60,216 bases of DNA, taken from the NCBI GenBank assembly GCA_034429055.1, contig DAOUGK010000025.1, forward strand, positions 1 to 60,216, written 5' to 3'. The position numbers and the translations under genes were made by a program. Shown here in pieces: positions 16,929-43,288 of this stretch. The notes under the pieces are model-generated. The model worked only from the letters and a program-made list of their open reading frames with translations, searched no databases and was not told the origin of the DNA. The stretch comes from Anaerolineae bacterium (GTDB taxonomy: Bacteria; Chloroflexota; Anaerolineae; CG2-30-64-16). The stretch's first letter is position 1, and every line of letters begins with the position of its first letter.

Positions 16929-19900
16929 ATGACCCAACATCATTTCGACCCTCAGAACCGTTTCGTCATCGAGGATTTCGACGCTTTTCCCTCGTTTGCC
17001 AGCTTCCTGCCGGGGATCGCGGGGCCGTTGGGCATTCCCCTCTGGGCGTTCTACGTCAACCGCGGCCAGGCCATTGCCGGCTTCGGCGTGGAAAGCAAGG
17101 ACAACCCCATTATGGAGTTCCAGCCGGCGAACAAGGCGTATCAGATGACGCCGTACATGGGATTCCGCACCTTCATCAAGCTGCGCGACCAGGCCGGTGA
17201 TAGGTATTACGAGCCGTTTTCCGCGGTAGCGCCGACCTCACCCTCAGCCCCTCTCCTGCAAGGAGAGGGGTCGGAGGTGAGGCCTCGCCGCATGTTCATC
17301 GCGCCGAACGAGCTGGAACTGGAAGAAGCGAGCCCGGTGCATGGTCTCCAGACCAACGTCGTGTACTTCATCCTGCCCGGCGAAGGCTTCGCCGCGCTGG
17401 TGCGCCAGGTGACGGTCAAAAACATCGCCGCACAACCGGTCGCGATCGAACTACTGGACGGCCTGCCGGCGATCATTCCATTCGGTGTGACGAACGGGAT
17501 GCTCAAGGAGATCGGCCGCACCGCTGAGGCGTGGATGGCGGTCACCAACCTGGCCCAGGGCATCCCGTTCTATCGGGTGCAGGCCAGCATTGCGGATCGC
17601 GCCGAGGTGGAAACATTCGAGGCGGGGCATTTCTACCTCGCCTTCACGGGTGGGGGTCAACACGGCGGTTCACCCCTGCTGTTCGTCGATCCTACGGTGA
17701 TCTTCGGTCCCAACACCGCCCTCAGCTATCCCGATCGCTTCCTCGCCGGCTCGCTGGCCGAGTTGGCTGCCGCGCCGCAGGTCCCGCTGTGCCGGACGCC
17801 CTGCGGGTTTGCCGGTGCCGCGGCCACGCTGGCGCCGGGTGAAGCGCTGACGCTCTATGCCATCATCGGCCACGTGGGCGAGGTGGAGGTCATCAACCGG
17901 GCGCGGGCGCGCCTGGCCGATCCCGTATTTGTCGCCGCCAAGCGCGCCGAGGCGCAGGCGCTGGCCGCGCAGTTGACCGCTTCCATTTCAACGCAAACCG
18001 GCGACTCGCGTTTCGACGCGTACTGCCGGCAGGCGATGCTCGACAACATCCTGCGCGGCGGCTGGCCCGTGTCCCTGGACGGCCACATTTACCACCTCTA
18101 CGGCCGCCGGCACGGCGACCTGGAGCGCGACTACAACGCGTTCCTCCTGCCGGCCGAGTTCTACTCACAGGGCAACGCGAGCTATCGGGATGTCAACCAG
18201 AATCGGCGCTCCGATGTGCTCTTCAACCCTGCGGTCGGTGATCAGGAGTTCCTGGCTTTCCTCAGTTTGATCCAACCCGACGGCTATAACCCGCTCACCG
18301 TGCTGGGCAGCCGGTTCACGATCCCGTCTGAGCGGCAAGCGGCGGTGCTTGCGCTGGTGGACCGGCCTGATCTGCTGCGTCCGCTGCTGAGCAACCCCTT
18401 CACGGCCGGCTCTCTGCTCAAGACGGTTGCGCAACACGGCATCCGCCTGACCGTGCCGCCGGCGGCCCTCGTCGAAGCGGCCGCGGCCCAGGCCGACTGG
18501 GAGTTCGCGGCGACGTTTACCGAGGGCTACTGGGTTGACCATTGGTTCTACAATCTTGATCTGCTGGACGCGTACCTGGCAATCTACCCGGACCGCCAAG
18601 ACGAGTTGTTGTTCGAGAAGACCGTGCCTTATTATCAAGGTGCGGCGTTCGTGCAGCCGCGCGAGCGGAAGACTGTGCTGCTGGCGAACGGCCAGGTGCG
18701 CCAGTATGGGGCACTTCTGGAAGACGAGGAATTGGCGCATCGGCTTGCCGGTGGACCCCACCCGCGCCACCTCGCGCGGGCGGGCCAGGGGGAGGGCGAG
18801 GTCTTCACGAGCACCGTCTTCGCCAAGCTGACCGGCCTCGCGCTGCTCAAGTTCGCCACCCTCGACCCGTCTGGCATGGGCGTCGAGATGGAGGCGGGCA
18901 AGCCGGGCTGGTGTGACGCGCTCAACGGCCTGCCGGGGTTGTTCGGCTCATCGCTGTCAGAGACCTATGAACTGCTGCGTCTGCTCGACTTCCTGCTGGG
19001 GAACCTCACCCCCCTGCCCTCCTCTCCCTCGCAGGGAGGGGGACGGGAGGAGGGTGTCGCTCTGCCCATCGAGCTGGCTGGGCTGCTGCGCGAGGTCGTG
19101 ACGCAGCTTACTGCCTACCAGCGCGCGTTTGACGCCGAGCGTGATCACCGCTATTGGGATGCCGTGGCGACTGCGCGCGAGGCTTATCGGCAGCGCGTCC
19201 GCCTGGGCTTCGACGGCCGCACGGAGACGATTGACTCTGCGAATCTCGGCTCGATCCTGCAGGCCTTCCGTGACAAGGTTGCCGCGGGTATCGCGCGGGC
19301 CGAGGCGCTGGCCGGCGGCATCCCGCCCACCTACTTCGTCCACGAAGCGCGCGATTACGAGGTCATGACCGGGGCGGCCGGCGAGCCGCTGCGTGACGGC
19401 CAGGGCCGGCCTTTCGTGCGCGTGACCCATTTTGAACTGCAAACCCTGCCCCCGTTCCTGGAGGGGCCGGTGCACGCCATGATGGCTTATCAGGCTGACC
19501 TCGCACGCACTCGCCTCATCTACGAACAGGTGAAGGCCGGACCGCTCTTCGACGCCGCGCTGGGCATGTACAAGACCAACGCGCCGCTGGCGGATTGCTC
19601 CCCCGAGATCGGCCGGCTGCGCGCCTTCACGCCGGGTTGGCTGGAGAACGAATCCGTATTCCTGCACATGGCCTACAAGTACCTGTTGGCGACCTTGCGG
19701 GCGGGGCTGCGCGACGAGTTCTTCACCGACATCCGCCGCGGCCTCGTACCGTTCTTCGATCCGCAGACTTATGGCCGCAGCCCGCTGGAGAACTCTTCGT
19801 TCATCGTCAGCAGCGCCCATCCCGATGCCGCGCTGCACGGCCGCGGGTATGTCGCCCGCCTCACCGGCGCCACTGCCGAGTTCCTCAGCATGTGGTCGCT

Positions 19901-20222
19901 GATGATGGTGGGGCCGCAGCCCTTCTGCCTGCGCGACGGCGAACTGTGTCTGGCGTTCAGACCGGTCCTGCCGGACTGGCTCTTCCGGGAGGATGGTACG
20001 CTGACCTTCACGTTCCTGGGGCAGTGCGAGGTCACTTACCGAAAGTCCGGGCCCCTCACCGGCGCAGCGCAGGTGGCTGCCGCGACGGTGCACCTGGCGA
20101 ACGGCGACCAACTCACCCTGCAGGGTGACCGTATCACCCTACAGGGTGACGTGATCCCTGCGCCCTATGCCGCGATGGTCCGCAGCGGCGAGATCCGGCG
20201 GATCGAGATGAGCTTGGAGTGA
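16929..20222 (+). CDS. Large GH94-related glycoside phosphorylase-like protein (1097 aa; GH149/GH161-type beta-1,3-glucan phosphorylase is a hypothesis)
   Basis: Motifs parallel those of the adjacent GH94-like protein: YRDVNQN vs WRDLWQD, GWCDALNG vs ADWNDGMD, VFLHMAYKY vs MFSHMAVMY. The ATG at 16929 (MTQHHF) is preferred over the GTG at 16905. The genomic context is GH16 enzymes plus an ABC importer. Confidence 0.75.
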   Translation: MTQHHFDPQNRFVIEDFDAFPSFASFLPGIAGPLGIPLWAFYVNRGQAIAGFGVESKDNPIMEFQPANKAYQMTPYMGFRTFIKLRDQAGDRYYEPFSAVAPTSPSAPLLQGEGSEVRPRRMFIAPNELELEEASPVHGLQTNVVYFILPGEGFAALVRQVTVKNIAAQPVAIELLDGLPAIIPFGVTNGMLKEIGRTAEAWMAVTNLAQGIPFYRVQASIADRAEVETFEAGHFYLAFTGGGQHGGSPLLFVDPTVIFGPNTALSYPDRFLAGSLAELAAAPQVPLCRTPCGFAGAAATLAPGEALTLYAIIGHVGEVEVINRARARLADPVFVAAKRAEAQALAAQLTASISTQTGDSRFDAYCRQAMLDNILRGGWPVSLDGHIYHLYGRRHGDLERDYNAFLLPAEFYSQGNASYRDVNQNRRSDVLFNPAVGDQEFLAFLSLIQPDGYNPLTVLGSRFTIPSERQAAVLALVDRPDLLRPLLSNPFTAGSLLKTVAQHGIRLTVPPAALVEAAAAQADWEFAATFTEGYWVDHWFYNLDLLDAYLAIYPDRQDELLFEKTVPYYQGAAFVQPRERKTVLLANGQVRQYGALLEDEELAHRLAGGPHPRHLARAGQGEGEVFTSTVFAKLTGLALLKFATLDPSGMGVEMEAGKPGWCDALNGLPGLFGSSLSETYELLRLLDFLLGNLTPLPSSPSQGGGREEGVALPIELAGLLREVVTQLTAYQRAFDAERDHRYWDAVATAREAYRQRVRLGFDGRTETIDSANLGSILQAFRDKVAAGIARAEALAGGIPPTYFVHEARDYEVMTGAAGEPLRDGQGRPFVRVTHFELQTLPPFLEGPVHAMMAYQADLARTRLIYEQVKAGPLFDAALGMYKTNAPLADCSPEIGRLRAFTPGWLENESVFLHMAYKYLLATLRAGLRDEFFTDIRRGLVPFFDPQTYGRSPLENSSFIVSSAHPDAALHGRGYVARLTGATAEFLSMWSLMMVGPQPFCLRDGELCLAFRPVLPDWLFREDGTLTFTFLGQCEVTYRKSGPLTGAAQVAAATVHLANGDQLTLQGDRITLQGDVIPAPYAAMVRSGEIRRIEMSLE
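17236..17282. repeat. GC-rich palindromic element embedded in frame in the CDS (copy 1)
   Basis: cctcacc-ctcag-cccctctcc-tgcaa-ggagagggg-tcgga-ggtgagg has 9-bp and 7-bp stems. It encodes the low-complexity peptide TSPSAPLLQGEGSEVR. Confidence 0.8.
19004..19056. repeat. GC-rich palindromic element embedded in frame in the CDS (copy 2, related to 17236-17282)
   Basis: cctcacccccctg-ccctcct-ctccct-cgc-agggag-ggggacggg-aggaggg has 6-bp and 7-bp stems and shares the cctcaccc start with copy 1. It encodes LTPLPSSPSQGGGREEGV. Confidence 0.7.
20113..20149. repeat. Two 16-bp palindromes spaced 21 bp apart (in-frame 21-bp tandem duplication) near the 3' end of the CDS
   Basis: tcaccctgcagggtga (20113-20128) is a perfect palindrome. 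tcaccctacagggtga (20134-20149) has one central mismatch. They encode LTLQGDR/ITLQGDV and lie 80-116 nt upstream of the next start codon. Confidence 0.8.
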
Positions 20223-29885: not shown

Positions 29886-30331
29886 GAACACTCCAGAAGA
29901 TAGGGTTGTGGTATGGATTGCGAATGGTGCGTGGGGTTAACAACTGAACAGCGGCCTGGAAGGCAGCCGCAGTACAGGCTCAGAAGGGAGCGGGAACGTA
30001 CGCCGGGTTTCATCCGGTGTCCTCTGGTTCGGCTCTGGGTGAGCCGCGGGCTATCTGGCCCGCGGCAGACAGGTGCAAGGGAGAGAAAAGACGGGTGCCG
30101 CGCGTCGTACGACGCGCGGCACCCGTCTTTTCTCTCCCTTGCACCTGTCTGCCGCGGGCCAGATAGCCCGCGGCTCACCCAGAGCCGAACCAGAGGACAC
30201 CGGATGAAACCCGGCGTACGTTCCCGCTCCCTTCTGAGCCTGTACTGCGGCTGCCTTCCAGGCCGCTGTTCAGTTGTTAACCCCACGCACCATTCGCAAT
30301 CCATACCACAACCCTATCTTCTGGAGTGTTC

Positions 30332-39994: not shown

Positions 39995-42900
39995 TCACTC
40001 CAAGCTCATCTCGATCCGCCGGATCTCGCCGCTGCGGACCATCGCGGCATAGGGCGCAGGGATCACGTCACCCTGTAGGGTGATACGGTCACCCTGCAGG
40101 GTGAGTTGGTCGCCGTTCGCCAGGTGCACCGTCGCGGCAGCCACCTGCGCTGCGCCGGTGAGGGGCCCGGACTTTCGGTAAGTGACCTCGCACTGCCCCA
40201 GGAACGTGAAGGTCAGCGTACCATCCTCCCGGAAGAGCCAGTCCGGCAGGACCGGTCTGAACGCCAGACACAGTTCGCCGTCGCGCAGGCAGAAGGGCTG
40301 CGGCCCCACCATCATCAGCGACCACATGCTGAGGAACTCGGCAGTGGCGCCGGTGAGGCGGGCGACATACCCGCGGCCGTGCAGCGCGGCATCGGGATGG
40401 GCGCTGCTGACGATGAACGAAGAGTTCTCCAGCGGGCTGCGGCCATAAGTCTGCGGATCGAAGAACGGTACGAGGCCGCGGCGGATGTCGGTGAAGAACT
40501 CGTCGCGCAGCCCCGCCCGCAAGGTCGCCAACAGGTACTTGTAGGCCATGTGCAGGAATACGGATTCGTTCTCCAGCCAACCCGGCGTGAAGGCGCGCAG
40601 CCGGCCGATCTCGGGGGAGCAATCCGCCAGCGGCGCGTTGGTCTTGTACATGCCCAGCGCGGCGTCGAAGAGCGGTCCGGCCTTCACCTGTTCGTAGATG
40701 AGGCGAGTGCGTGCGAGGTCAGCCTGATAAGCCATCATGGCGTGCACCGGCCCCTCCAGGAACGGGGGCAGGGTTTGCAGTTCAAAATGGGTCACGCGCA
40801 CGAAAGGCCGGCCCTGGCCGTCACGCAGCGGCTCGCCGGCCGCCCCGGTCATGACCTCGTAATCGCGCGCTTCGTGGACGAAGTAGGTGGGCGGGATGCC
40901 GCCGGCCAGCGCCTCGGCCCGCGCGATACCCGCGGCAACCTTGTCACGGAAGGCCTGCAGGATCGAGCCGAGATTCGCAGAGTCAATCGTCTCCGTGCGG
41001 CCGTCGAAGCCCAGGCGGACGCGCTGCCGATAAGCCTCGCGCGCAGTCGCCACGGCATCCCAATAGCGGTGATCACGCTCGGCGTCAAACGCGCGCTGGT
41101 AGGCAGTAAGCTGCGTCACGACCTCGCGCAGCAGCCCAGCCAGCTCGATGGGCAGAGCGACACCCTCCTCCCGTCCCCCTCCCTGCGAGGGAGAGGAGGG
41201 CAGGGGGGTGAGGTTCCCCAGCAGGAAGTCGAGCAGACGCAGCAGTTCATAGGTCTCTGACAGCGATGAGCCGAACAACCCCGGCAGGCCGTTGAGCGCG
41301 TCACACCAGCCCGGCTTGCCCGCCTCCATCTCGACGCCCATGCCAGACGGGTCGAGGGTGGCGAACTTGAGCAGCGCGAGGCCGGTCAGCTTGGCGAAGA
41401 CGGTGCTCGTGAAGACCTCGCCCTCCCCCTGGCCCGCCCGCGCGAGGTGGCGCGGGTGGGGTCCACCGGCAAGCCGATGCGCCAATTCCTCGTCTTCCAG
41501 AAGTGCCCCATACTGGCGCACCTGGCCGTTCGCCAGCAGCACAGTCTTCCGCTCGCGCGGCTGCACGAACGCCGCACCTTGATAATAAGGCACGGTCTTC
41601 TCGAACAACAACTCGTCTTGGCGGTCCGGGTAGATTGCCAGGTACGCGTCCAGCAGATCAAGATTGTAGAACCAATGGTCAACCCAGTAGCCCTCGGTAA
41701 ACGTCGCCGCGAACTCCCAGTCGGCCTGGGCCGCGGCCGCTTCGACGAGGGCCGCCGGCGGCACGGTCAGGCGGATGCCGTGTTGCGCAACCGTCTTGAG
41801 CAGAGAGCCGGCCGTGAAGGGGTTGCTCAGCAGCGGACGCAGCAGATCAGGCCGGTCCACCAGCGCAAGCACCGCCGCTTGCCGCTCAGACGGGATCGTG
41901 AACCGGCTGCCCAGCACGGTGAGCGGGTTATAGCCGTCGGGTTGGATCAAACTGAGGAAAGCCAGGAACTCCTGATCACCGACCGCAGGGTTGAAGAGCA
42001 CATCGGAGCGCCGATTCTGGTTGACATCCCGATAGCTCGCGTTGCCCTGTGAGTAGAACTCGGCCGGCAGGAGGAACGCGTTGTAGTCGCGCTCCAGGTC
42101 GCCGTGCCGGCGGCCGTAGAGGTGGTAAATGTGGCCGTCCAGGGACACGGGCCAGCCGCCGCGCAGGATGTTGTCGAGCATCGCCTGCCGGCAGTACGCG
42201 TCGAAACGCGAGTCGCCGGTTTGCGTTGAAATGGAAGCGGTCAACTGCGCGGCCAGCGCCTGCGCCTCGGCGCGCTTGGCGGCGACAAATACGGGATCGG
42301 CCAGGCGCGCCCGCGCCCGGTTGATGACCTCCACCTCGCCCACGTGGCCGATGATGGCATAGAGCGTCAGCGCTTCACCCGGCGCCAGCGTGGCCGCGGC
42401 ACCGGCAAACCCGCAGGGCGTCCGGCACAGCGGGACCTGCGGCGCGGCAGCCAACTCGGCCAGCGAGCCGGCGAGGAAGCGATCGGGATAGCTGAGGGCG
42501 GTGTTGGGACCGAAGATCACCGTAGGATCGACGAACAGCAGGGGTGAACCGCCGTGTTGACCCCCACCCGTGAAGGCGAGGTAGAAATGCCCCGCCTCGA
42601 ATGTTTCCACCTCGGCGCGATCCGCAATGCTGGCCTGCACCCGATAGAACGGGATGCCCTGGGCCAGGTTGGTGACCGCCATCCACGCCTCAGCGGTGCG
42701 GCCGATCTCCTTGAGCATCCCGTTCGTCACACCGAATGGAATGATCGCCGGCAGGCCGTCCAGTAGTTCGATCGCGACCGGTTGTGCGGCGATGTTTTTG
42801 ACCGTCACCTGGCGCACCAGCGCGGCGAAGCCTTCGCCGGGCAGGATGAAGTACACGACGTTGGTCTGGAGACCATGCACCGGGCTCGCTTCTTCCAGTT

Positions 42901-43288
42901 CCAGCTCGTTCGGCGCGATGAACATGCGGCGAGGCCTCACCTCCGACCCCTCTCCTTGCAGGAGAGGGGCTGAGGGTGAGGTCGGCGCTACCGCGGAAAA
43001 CGGCTCGTAATACCTATCACCGGCCTGGTCGCGCAGCTTGATGAAGGTGCGGAATCCCATGTACGGCGTCATCTGATACGCCTTGTTCGCCGGCTGGAAC
43101 TCCATAATGGGGTTGTCCTTGCTTTCCACGCCGAAGCCGGCAATGGCCTGGCCGCGGTTGACGTAGAACGCCCAGAGGGGAATGCCCAACGGCCCCGCGA
43201 TCCCCGGCAGGAAGCTGGCAAACGAGGGAAAAGCGTCGAAATCCTCGATGACGAAACGGTTCTGAGGGTCGAAATGATGTTGGGTCAT
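39995..43288 (-). CDS. Large GH94-related glycoside phosphorylase-like protein (mirror copy)
   Basis: Exact twin of 16929-20222. Confidence 0.75.
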   Translation of the reverse strand: MTQHHFDPQNRFVIEDFDAFPSFASFLPGIAGPLGIPLWAFYVNRGQAIAGFGVESKDNPIMEFQPANKAYQMTPYMGFRTFIKLRDQAGDRYYEPFSAVAPTSPSAPLLQGEGSEVRPRRMFIAPNELELEEASPVHGLQTNVVYFILPGEGFAALVRQVTVKNIAAQPVAIELLDGLPAIIPFGVTNGMLKEIGRTAEAWMAVTNLAQGIPFYRVQASIADRAEVETFEAGHFYLAFTGGGQHGGSPLLFVDPTVIFGPNTALSYPDRFLAGSLAELAAAPQVPLCRTPCGFAGAAATLAPGEALTLYAIIGHVGEVEVINRARARLADPVFVAAKRAEAQALAAQLTASISTQTGDSRFDAYCRQAMLDNILRGGWPVSLDGHIYHLYGRRHGDLERDYNAFLLPAEFYSQGNASYRDVNQNRRSDVLFNPAVGDQEFLAFLSLIQPDGYNPLTVLGSRFTIPSERQAAVLALVDRPDLLRPLLSNPFTAGSLLKTVAQHGIRLTVPPAALVEAAAAQADWEFAATFTEGYWVDHWFYNLDLLDAYLAIYPDRQDELLFEKTVPYYQGAAFVQPRERKTVLLANGQVRQYGALLEDEELAHRLAGGPHPRHLARAGQGEGEVFTSTVFAKLTGLALLKFATLDPSGMGVEMEAGKPGWCDALNGLPGLFGSSLSETYELLRLLDFLLGNLTPLPSSPSQGGGREEGVALPIELAGLLREVVTQLTAYQRAFDAERDHRYWDAVATAREAYRQRVRLGFDGRTETIDSANLGSILQAFRDKVAAGIARAEALAGGIPPTYFVHEARDYEVMTGAAGEPLRDGQGRPFVRVTHFELQTLPPFLEGPVHAMMAYQADLARTRLIYEQVKAGPLFDAALGMYKTNAPLADCSPEIGRLRAFTPGWLENESVFLHMAYKYLLATLRAGLRDEFFTDIRRGLVPFFDPQTYGRSPLENSSFIVSSAHPDAALHGRGYVARLTGATAEFLSMWSLMMVGPQPFCLRDGELCLAFRPVLPDWLFREDGTLTFTFLGQCEVTYRKSGPLTGAAQVAAATVHLANGDQLTLQGDRITLQGDVIPAPYAAMVRSGEIRRIEMSLE
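40068..40104. repeat. Two 16-bp palindromes spaced 21 bp apart (mirror copy)
   Basis: Exact twin of 20113-20149. Confidence 0.8.
41161..41213. repeat. In-frame GC-rich palindromic element, copy 2 (mirror copy)
   Basis: Exact twin of 19004-19056. Confidence 0.7.
42935..42981. repeat. In-frame GC-rich palindromic element, copy 1 (mirror copy)
   Basis: Exact twin of 17236-17282. Confidence 0.8.

Follow-up and report, generated by a model that had tools for sequence, protein, structure and literature searches.

The window analysed here is the whole of one contig (C25, GenBank DAOUGK010000025.1; 60216 nt) from the metagenome-assembled genome (MAG) of an Anaerolineae bacterium of the phylum Chloroflexota, and the subject of this report is a pair of palindromic segments that lie in frame inside one of its protein-coding genes. 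This gene spans positions 16929..20222 on the + strand and is intact, with a single open reading frame (ORF) for a protein of 1097 aa, which by full-length sequence and fold similarity is clearly a predicted beta-1,3-glucan phosphorylase of the GH161 type. Residues 11-1095 align in phmmer with the GH161 structures 9h8v/9qqk of the PDB (E = 2e-250), and the top Foldseek matches are 9gy9/9qqk, with 39-40% identity and E = 1e-71. Pfam returned no match for the protein and NCBIfam a weak one to GH149. Its homologues, more than 3000 and mostly from Anaerolineae, appear in public annotation as 'cellobiose phosphorylase' (some sources) or as 'hypothetical'.

Both segments lie within the host frame, and the ORF runs uninterrupted through each of them. 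Element 1 (17236-17282, + strand; residues 103-118, translated TSPSAPLLQGEGSEVR) is a near-perfect nested hairpin with the sequence CCTCACC-CTCAG-CCCCTCTCC-TGCAA-GGAGAGGGG-TCGGA-GGTGAGG, in which the outer arms CCTCACC (17236-17242) and GGTGAGG (17276-17282) enclose an inner clamp formed by CCCCTCTCC (17248-17256) and GGAGAGGGG (17262-17270) around the apex TGCAA. Element 2 (19004-19056, + strand; residues 692-710, translated LTPLPSSPSQGGGREEGV) is a degenerate copy, CCTCACCCCCC-TG-CCCTCCT-CTCCCT-CGC-AGGGAG-GGGGACGGG-AGGAGGG-TG, composed of an outer arm CCTCACCCCCC (19004-19014), a 'hairpin B' CCCTCCT/CTCCCT-CGC-AGGGAG (19017-19038) and a decayed right side, GGGGACGGGAGGAGGGTG. Sequences, reading frame and peptides are exactly those given by the initial annotation, which had described both segments as hairpin-forming; judged by fold energy, this holds for element 1 but not for element 2. 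Folded as a single DNA strand, element 1 forms a nested hairpin of 9 + 7 bp at -18.3 kcal/mol; the 200 shuffles lie at -8.3 +/- 2.0, and none of them is as good (z = -4.9). Chance, estimated by shuffling the window, would yield the core pattern CCCCTCTCC-N3-7-GGAGAGGGG 0.00 times. The fold energy of element 2 is no better than that of composition-matched shuffles (z = -0.9, 41 of 200 as good), and its status as a decayed copy is read from the sequence: it shares all of its first 16 nt with the left arm of the copies on contigs C161 and C216, and its 3' portion agrees with intact copies that relatives carry at this site.

The two segments are members of a repeat family that is dispersed throughout this genome. 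Hairpins in which the pyrimidine arm comes first and the stem reaches at least 8 bp number 30, against 8 purine-arm-first controls, and nearly all 30 share motifs. The half-site CCTCACCCCCCGACCCCCTCTCC is found 46 times at <=4 errors, as opposed to 7 times in a shuffle, and clustering leads to 45 loci in this MAG (about 46 overall). Further copies in the source genome, which the initial annotation had led one to expect, are thus present: about 45 other loci of the family, most of them intergenic, with 7 more copies in frame in other genes. The general layout consists of (tGA)CCTCACCCCCC, a spacer of 2-3 nt, an inner clamp arm CCCCCTCTCC(TG), the apex, (CA)GGAGAGGGGG, a spacer and GGGGGGTGAGG(TCa), where the clamp is polypyrimidine/polypurine and the outer blocks CCTCACCCCCC / GGGGGGTGAGG mirror the inner arms. 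Despite its hypervariability, with 43 different sequences among 45 inner hairpins, the apex is self-complementary and lengthens the stem by a mean of 4.4 bp, versus 0.41 bp when shuffled. Single 9-mer arms are not enriched in the genome, the enrichment being confined to the combined architecture, and Rfam contains nothing meaningful for the elements (E up to 1). Among 41 related genomes, 33 contain the core pattern; copy numbers range over 0-133, compared with 0-4 for a reversed-pattern control. The literature search found no paper on palindromic repeats in Anaerolineae. Small hairpin modules are also seen nested in or beside elements, namely GTGCGAGC-loop-GCTCGCAC on C216, C356, C400, C482, C289 and C36, and GCGGCC-TAC-GGCCGC on C161, C373, C405, C102 and C539, and this recurrence gives the family the appearance of a mosaic like that of bacterial interspersed mosaic elements (BIMEs).

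With respect to their genomic position, 10 of the 45 loci lie between convergent genes, 12 between unidirectional genes and 7 just past a 3' end, 4 overlap ORF ends, and none lies between divergent genes. Eight are well inside long ORFs, in the window gene and on C50, C288 (two copies), C373, C400, C513 and C607, and window element 2 represents a ninth such copy. This intragenic share is far below what a coding density of 85% would produce (p = 2e-23). A TGA is contained in the motif CTCCTGA, which 18 of 33 intergenic copies have and all 8 intragenic ones lack (p = 0.0056). Both the scarcity of intragenic copies and the missing CTCCTGA fit a filter in which survival requires an open reading in the host frame and a site in a tolerant loop.

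Within the phosphorylase gene, an alignment of 50 homologues shows both segments to be insertions in loops of variable length, as the initial annotation had suspected: site 1 is occupied by 6-7 residues in distant homologues, and site 2 by about 5, and the sequence of the solved GH161 enzyme has gaps at both. At the DNA level, the orthologues of genomes G010 (81% identity) and G015 (73%) contain unrelated short loops, that is, empty sites. In G001, a member of the same genus (93%), both elements are present and site 1 has a second hairpin as well, CTCTCCCCCCTCCCT-CGC-AGAGAGGGGGG, whereas a decayed relic is found at site 1 of G006 (69%). A metagenome contig, P0008, whose protein is 67% identical, has arrays of well-formed copies at both sites. 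The better-preserved form of site 2 in G001 and P0008 reads CCCCCTCCCT-TGC-AGGGAGGGGG..GGGGGGTAGGTG, and at the 3' end of this site GCGCAGGGAGGGGGACGGGGGGTAGGTG of P0008 matches TCGCAGGGAGGGGGACGGGAGGAGGGTG of the window. The AlphaFold model of the host protein (mean pLDDT, the per-residue confidence, of 73) places site 1 in a coil between strands 90-94 and 121-124, with pLDDT <50 at residues 104-116, and site 2 in a coil between helix 676-691 and strand 709-713; the secondary-structure elements on either side are well predicted, and the surface-loop placement that had been anticipated agrees with the model. Both segments are lineage-specific insertions in variable coil loops, and most homologues lack them.

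The turnover of these units can be followed among sister genomes, where three other intragenic cases were judged by comparison of orthologue DNA, since Pfam was largely uninformative on the six other host proteins. In the gene on C607, the hairpin apex is CGAAACCGCAGTTTCG in the present genome (G000) and TGACGCAGCGTCA in G003, both hairpins stand in tandem in G001, and both occur in reverse order in G002, all of them in frame. The element in the C50 gene is common to G000 and G001 and decayed in G002, and contigs of G002 and G003 end at the element site. The C288 gene has a loop of 10 residues in G002 versus 49 residues, including the element, in G000 and G001. As a separate observation, the membrane glycosyltransferase-like protein encoded at C50:6083-8242 has a Ser/Thr-rich repetitive stretch, ITSNGVTSNEVTSKGVTSKEAASSSLLITLYSSLVTHYS, at residues ~113-150, which resembles an in-frame insertion of another repeat. 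When G000 is compared with G001, nucleotide differences amount to 16.7% and residue differences to 28% in the codons of both window elements, against 8.3% and 6.3% in the rest of the host gene, where fourfold-degenerate sites differ at 18.7%. The elements thus diverge at approximately the neutral rate, which argues for tolerated passengers over a functional peptide or a strongly selected nucleic-acid structure.

We consider it very probable that both segments belong to a DNA repeat family that is dispersed, modular and made of nested hairpins, element 1 being a well-preserved copy and element 2 a decaying one, and that they are tolerated in-frame passengers. According to the history that we propose, copies would have entered two poorly conserved surface loops of the GH161 gene in an ancestor of the genus and some of its neighbours, and would owe their persistence to the chance that the frame used is open through them, without an in-frame TGA. 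They would be translated as disordered loops, Pro/Ser-rich and then Gly/Glu/Arg-rich, that the enzyme tolerates. Since insertion, they may have drifted at about the neutral rate, and recombination or slippage between the constant clamps would have led to the gain, loss and reordering of hairpin units. Several observations weigh against this account. Besides the poor folding of element 2, the distribution of the insertions does not track protein identity, since they are absent at 81% and present as a relic at 69%, a pattern that requires loss of the insertions or their repeated arrival at a hot spot. No intragenic copy has a clean filled/empty pair at high identity; the empty-site orthologues are too diverged for target-site duplications and exact insertion boundaries to be recovered. 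Finally, the census of coding and intergenic copies is based on a simple, purpose-made gene caller that relies on codon usage (85% coding).

The count of copies has to take into account the structure of the assembly. The window and its reverse complement are identical (0 mismatches), which leaves only 30.1 kb of unique sequence. The 'mirror copies' listed in the initial annotation, at 41161-41213 (- strand, element 2) and 42935-42981 (- strand, element 1), are because of this fold-back artefacts and not independent copies, and for the same reason all genes in 30109-60216 are duplicates. The palindrome axis, within 30090..30127 and between positions 30108 and 30109, coincides with the apex of a natural terminator-like hairpin, GACGGGTGCCGCGCGTCGT|ACGACGCGCGGCACCCGTC. 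Two other contigs, C1 (12712 nt) and C308 (19696 nt), are also perfect palindromes, and in C1 the axis coincides precisely with the apex of a family member. The location of axes at natural hairpins points to an assembler that folds back there. Contig ends also bear family motifs more often than expected (5 of 1260, on C14, C283, C387, C390 and C565, versus 0.035% of random windows, about 11-fold), which indicates that the repeats fragment the assembly and that the copy number is probably underestimated.

Three perfect palindromes and the enrichment at contig ends might suggest that the intragenic copies are themselves products of this fragmented assembly. The same insertions are nevertheless found at the same sites in G001, G003, P0002, P0003 and P0008, which were assembled independently, and the frame is intact across them, so that this explanation has a practically negligible probability. 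It is likewise scarcely credible that the segments are ordinary low-complexity, Pro/Gly-rich linkers that arose in situ by slippage and protein-level selection. Loop length does vary in all homologues, and linkers rich in Pro, Ser and Gly are common; this origin is contradicted, however, by the genome-wide repeat family, in which the same 9-11-nt modules recur, with their order unchanged, at about 45 further loci, most of which are non-coding. The negligible chance expectation of the dyad symmetry and the absence of constraint on the residues point the same way. A different possibility is that the hairpins are functional nucleic-acid elements kept in the coding sequence, either as an mRNA structure for ribosome pausing or transcript stabilisation or as DNA structures, hairpin or triplex, that serve as recombination hot spots and diversify the length of surface loops. 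The near-perfect pairing that element 1 retains would agree with such a role, as would the well-formed arrays at both sites of a relative with only 67% identity, the variation of apexes with conserved self-complementarity, the difference in loop length between sister species and the report that TM loci of E. coli (introduced below) are more rearranged than controls (PMC4666352). A function of this kind is improbable, given that the segments diverge at about the synonymous rate, that element 2 lacks significant folding and that many orthologues lack the elements. Self-complementary apexes, moreover, could persist without selection, through template-switch correction of quasi-palindromes.

The remaining alternative is that of classical repetitive extragenic palindromes (REPs, or REPINs) mobilised by a RAYT, an IS200/IS605-like Y1 transposase. 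REPs are known inside ORFs: intragenic REPs with GTAG/CGTC tags occur in the coding sequences of several species, where they encode 20-80 residues (Di Nocera et al. 2013, PMC3733652). The present family resembles REPs and BIMEs in its short GC-rich hairpins, its mosaic clusters, its position on the 3' side of genes with a preference for convergent and unidirectional pairs, and its occasional in-frame copies, and this genome encodes Y1_Tnp proteins (PF01797), on C135 and C308. These genes are flanked, however, by repeats unrelated to the family: GCCTGAGGTTTGTAGCCTCAGGC, which contains GTAG, on C135 (L001, G000:C135, 1352-1415) and four copies of TGGAGTCGAGGCTTCAGCCGGTT on C308 (L002, G000:C308, 1346-1430 and 2014-2103). 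They may represent, together with their repeats, separate REP/RAYT systems in the same genome. Neither GTAG nor CGTC marks the outer arms of the family as a tag: the four bases outside them are mostly TC-- (TCCG, TCAC, TCGC), with 3 instances of CGTC, and the twelve commonest tags listed do not include GTAG. A REP/RAYT identity was accordingly rejected, and mobilisation of these elements as classical REPs is very improbable. The REP-type label that had been given to the segments does not apply in the strict sense, with its tags and its link to a RAYT, and gives way to the BoxC/PIT/TM architecture described below. In relation to miniature inverted-repeat transposable elements, the whole element is a palindrome, no parent insertion sequence was seen, and filled/empty pairs are not clean enough to reveal a duplication.

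In architecture, the elements are closest to the BoxC/PIT/TM repeats. These were the subject of earlier work of Bachellier and of Hoyne & Maher, cited by Holder et al., and include TM_ECO, of the form CCCTCNCCC-N3-6-GGGNGAGGG-N3-GGGNGAGGG, in which a pyrimidine stem is followed by a purine stem and then by another purine block with the potential for a purine-motif triplex (Holder et al. 2015, PMC4666352). TM stems have 8-15 nt with <=1 mismatch, two-sided 'palindromic TM' forms exist, and TM_ECO was reported as always intergenic in E. coli K-12 and as occurring in 262 proteobacterial genomes (PMC4666352). In the present family, ten allowed triads result when GGGGGTGAGG is aligned in antiparallel orientation with GGAGAGGGGG: G*G-C at eight positions, T*A-T at one and A*A-T at one. 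The triad score is 10/10 in 30 of 90 hairpin sides and >=9/10 in 37 of 90, versus 1.8% for shuffled flanks, and the third-strand blocks of window element 1 form 8/10 and 9/10 purine-motif triads on its two sides. By these features of its sequence, the family can be assigned to the BoxC/PIT/TM 'intrastrand triplex' architecture class, in the two-sided palindromic form and outside the TM_ECO subfamily. It has in common with that class the three G/C-rich blocks, with a second purine block able to align antiparallel with the first, and the triad composition, G*G-C apart from a single T*A-T and a single A*A-T, as well as the tens of dispersed copies without a known transposase, the strong variation of copy number between relatives and the small deletions that retain a hairpin. 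It differs from TM_ECO in register (GGAGAGGGGG-TC-GGGGGTGAGG here, GGGAGAGGG-TTA-GGGTGAGGG there), in its long, hypervariable and self-complementary apex in place of a loop of 3-6 nt, in its extra nested hairpin modules, in its Chloroflexota host and in its 8-9 in-frame intragenic copies. Three points count against the assignment or limit it. The strict TM_ECO pattern has 0 matches on either strand of the genome, which is due to the different register of A/T positions; the kinship with BoxC may reflect convergence on a structure rather than common descent; and triplex formation in vivo has never been shown, even for E. coli (PMC4666352).

In their behaviour, the elements are similar to the Rickettsia palindromic elements (RPEs; Ogata et al. 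2000, as summarised in PMC3733652 and PMC10969869), an analogy that was already drawn in the initial annotation and that fits. Both are palindromic repeats found between genes and in frame in functional genes, absent there from orthologues, located in variable surface regions where the extra peptide appears to be tolerated, and without an encoded transposase. RPEs are, however, longer and A/T-richer, restricted to Rickettsia and devoid of triplex-type mirror blocks, and the intragenic share of the present family is a minority of about 18%. Membership of the RPE family is implausible, given the different host phylum, size (45-60 nt) and G+C content, and the likeness is one of behaviour only.

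A possible partner of these repeats comes from the analysis of related genomes. DUF559 proteins are small nucleases of the YcjD type, Vsr-like and of the PD-(D/E)xK fold, and their gene, of which this assembly has none, is present in 23 of the 41 relatives. In 10-11 of the 12 small DUF559 loci examined in related genomes, hairpins of this class lie <=300 nt from the gene, and in 9-10 they lie on both sides, when the background chance of such a match is about 0.005 per flank. The DUF559 flanks of G001 and G002, which belong to the same genus, are exactly of the CCTCACCCC/CCCCTCTCC family, and in three genera the flanks are direct repeats of 85-157 nt that are 94-98% identical. A filled and an empty site can be compared between G000, where C390:1-160 holds a single element without a gene, and the orthologous site of G001 (L020, G001:C3:521500-524300; 1054-1700), where about 503 bp between two copies of the inner hairpin comprise an outer arm, a DUF559 ORF of 123 codons and another outer arm; this pair suggests a unit of gene plus repeat that enters or leaves the repeats by recombination. 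In E. coli K-12, a TM_ECO copy lies about 165 nt past the 3' end of ycjD, a DUF559 gene. Downstream of the same gene (L026, NC_000913.3 1351000-1351840), a partial second copy of its 3' end is seen, with aatattctccagcaccgtctcc occurring twice, which suggests a past duplication or a remnant cassette.

DUF559 is on these grounds a candidate partner of the repeats, as yet unproven and the only one seen, and the nuclease could also be a passenger that targets them. Against a role as mobiliser, there is no clean correlation between DUF559 and repeat number across the 41 genomes: G016, with its 133 repeat copies, lacks the gene, and G035 and G039 possess it together with 0 copies of the exact pattern. 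To our knowledge, no activity of DUF559 on such a repeat has been described, and our literature search found no paper linking BoxC with DUF559 or ycjD. A speculative and rather unlikely extension of these data would join BoxC/triplex-type repeats and the DUF559 genes that they bracket into one selfish system, extending from E. coli to Chloroflexota. In such a system, the nuclease would act on the folded repeat, the unit of gene plus repeat would enter and leave chromosomal repeats by recombination, and gene-less repeats would have spread into coding sequences of Chloroflexota, where recombination from clamp to clamp would rapidly shift loop lengths between species.

In-frame palindromic repeats are a known theme, represented by RPEs and intragenic REPs (PMC3733652). 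What is added here is the repeat class, the phylum, the modular design with a hypervariable apex, and a turnover of units that is visible inside reading frames. The presence of selfish palindromes in frame, first recognised in Rickettsia and later in some REP-bearing bacteria, now extends to free-living Chloroflexota. For BoxC/PIT/TM elements, we know of no function or mobiliser established since the 1990s, and the DUF559 genes bracketed by such repeats provide a testable lead to a candidate handler. Hairpins of this kind also fragment MAGs and seed fold-back contigs. For the annotation and structure prediction of Anaerolineae proteins, the implication is that disordered loops of the Pro/Ser...Gly/Glu/Arg type can be repeat-derived, and that such loops can be functionally ignored.

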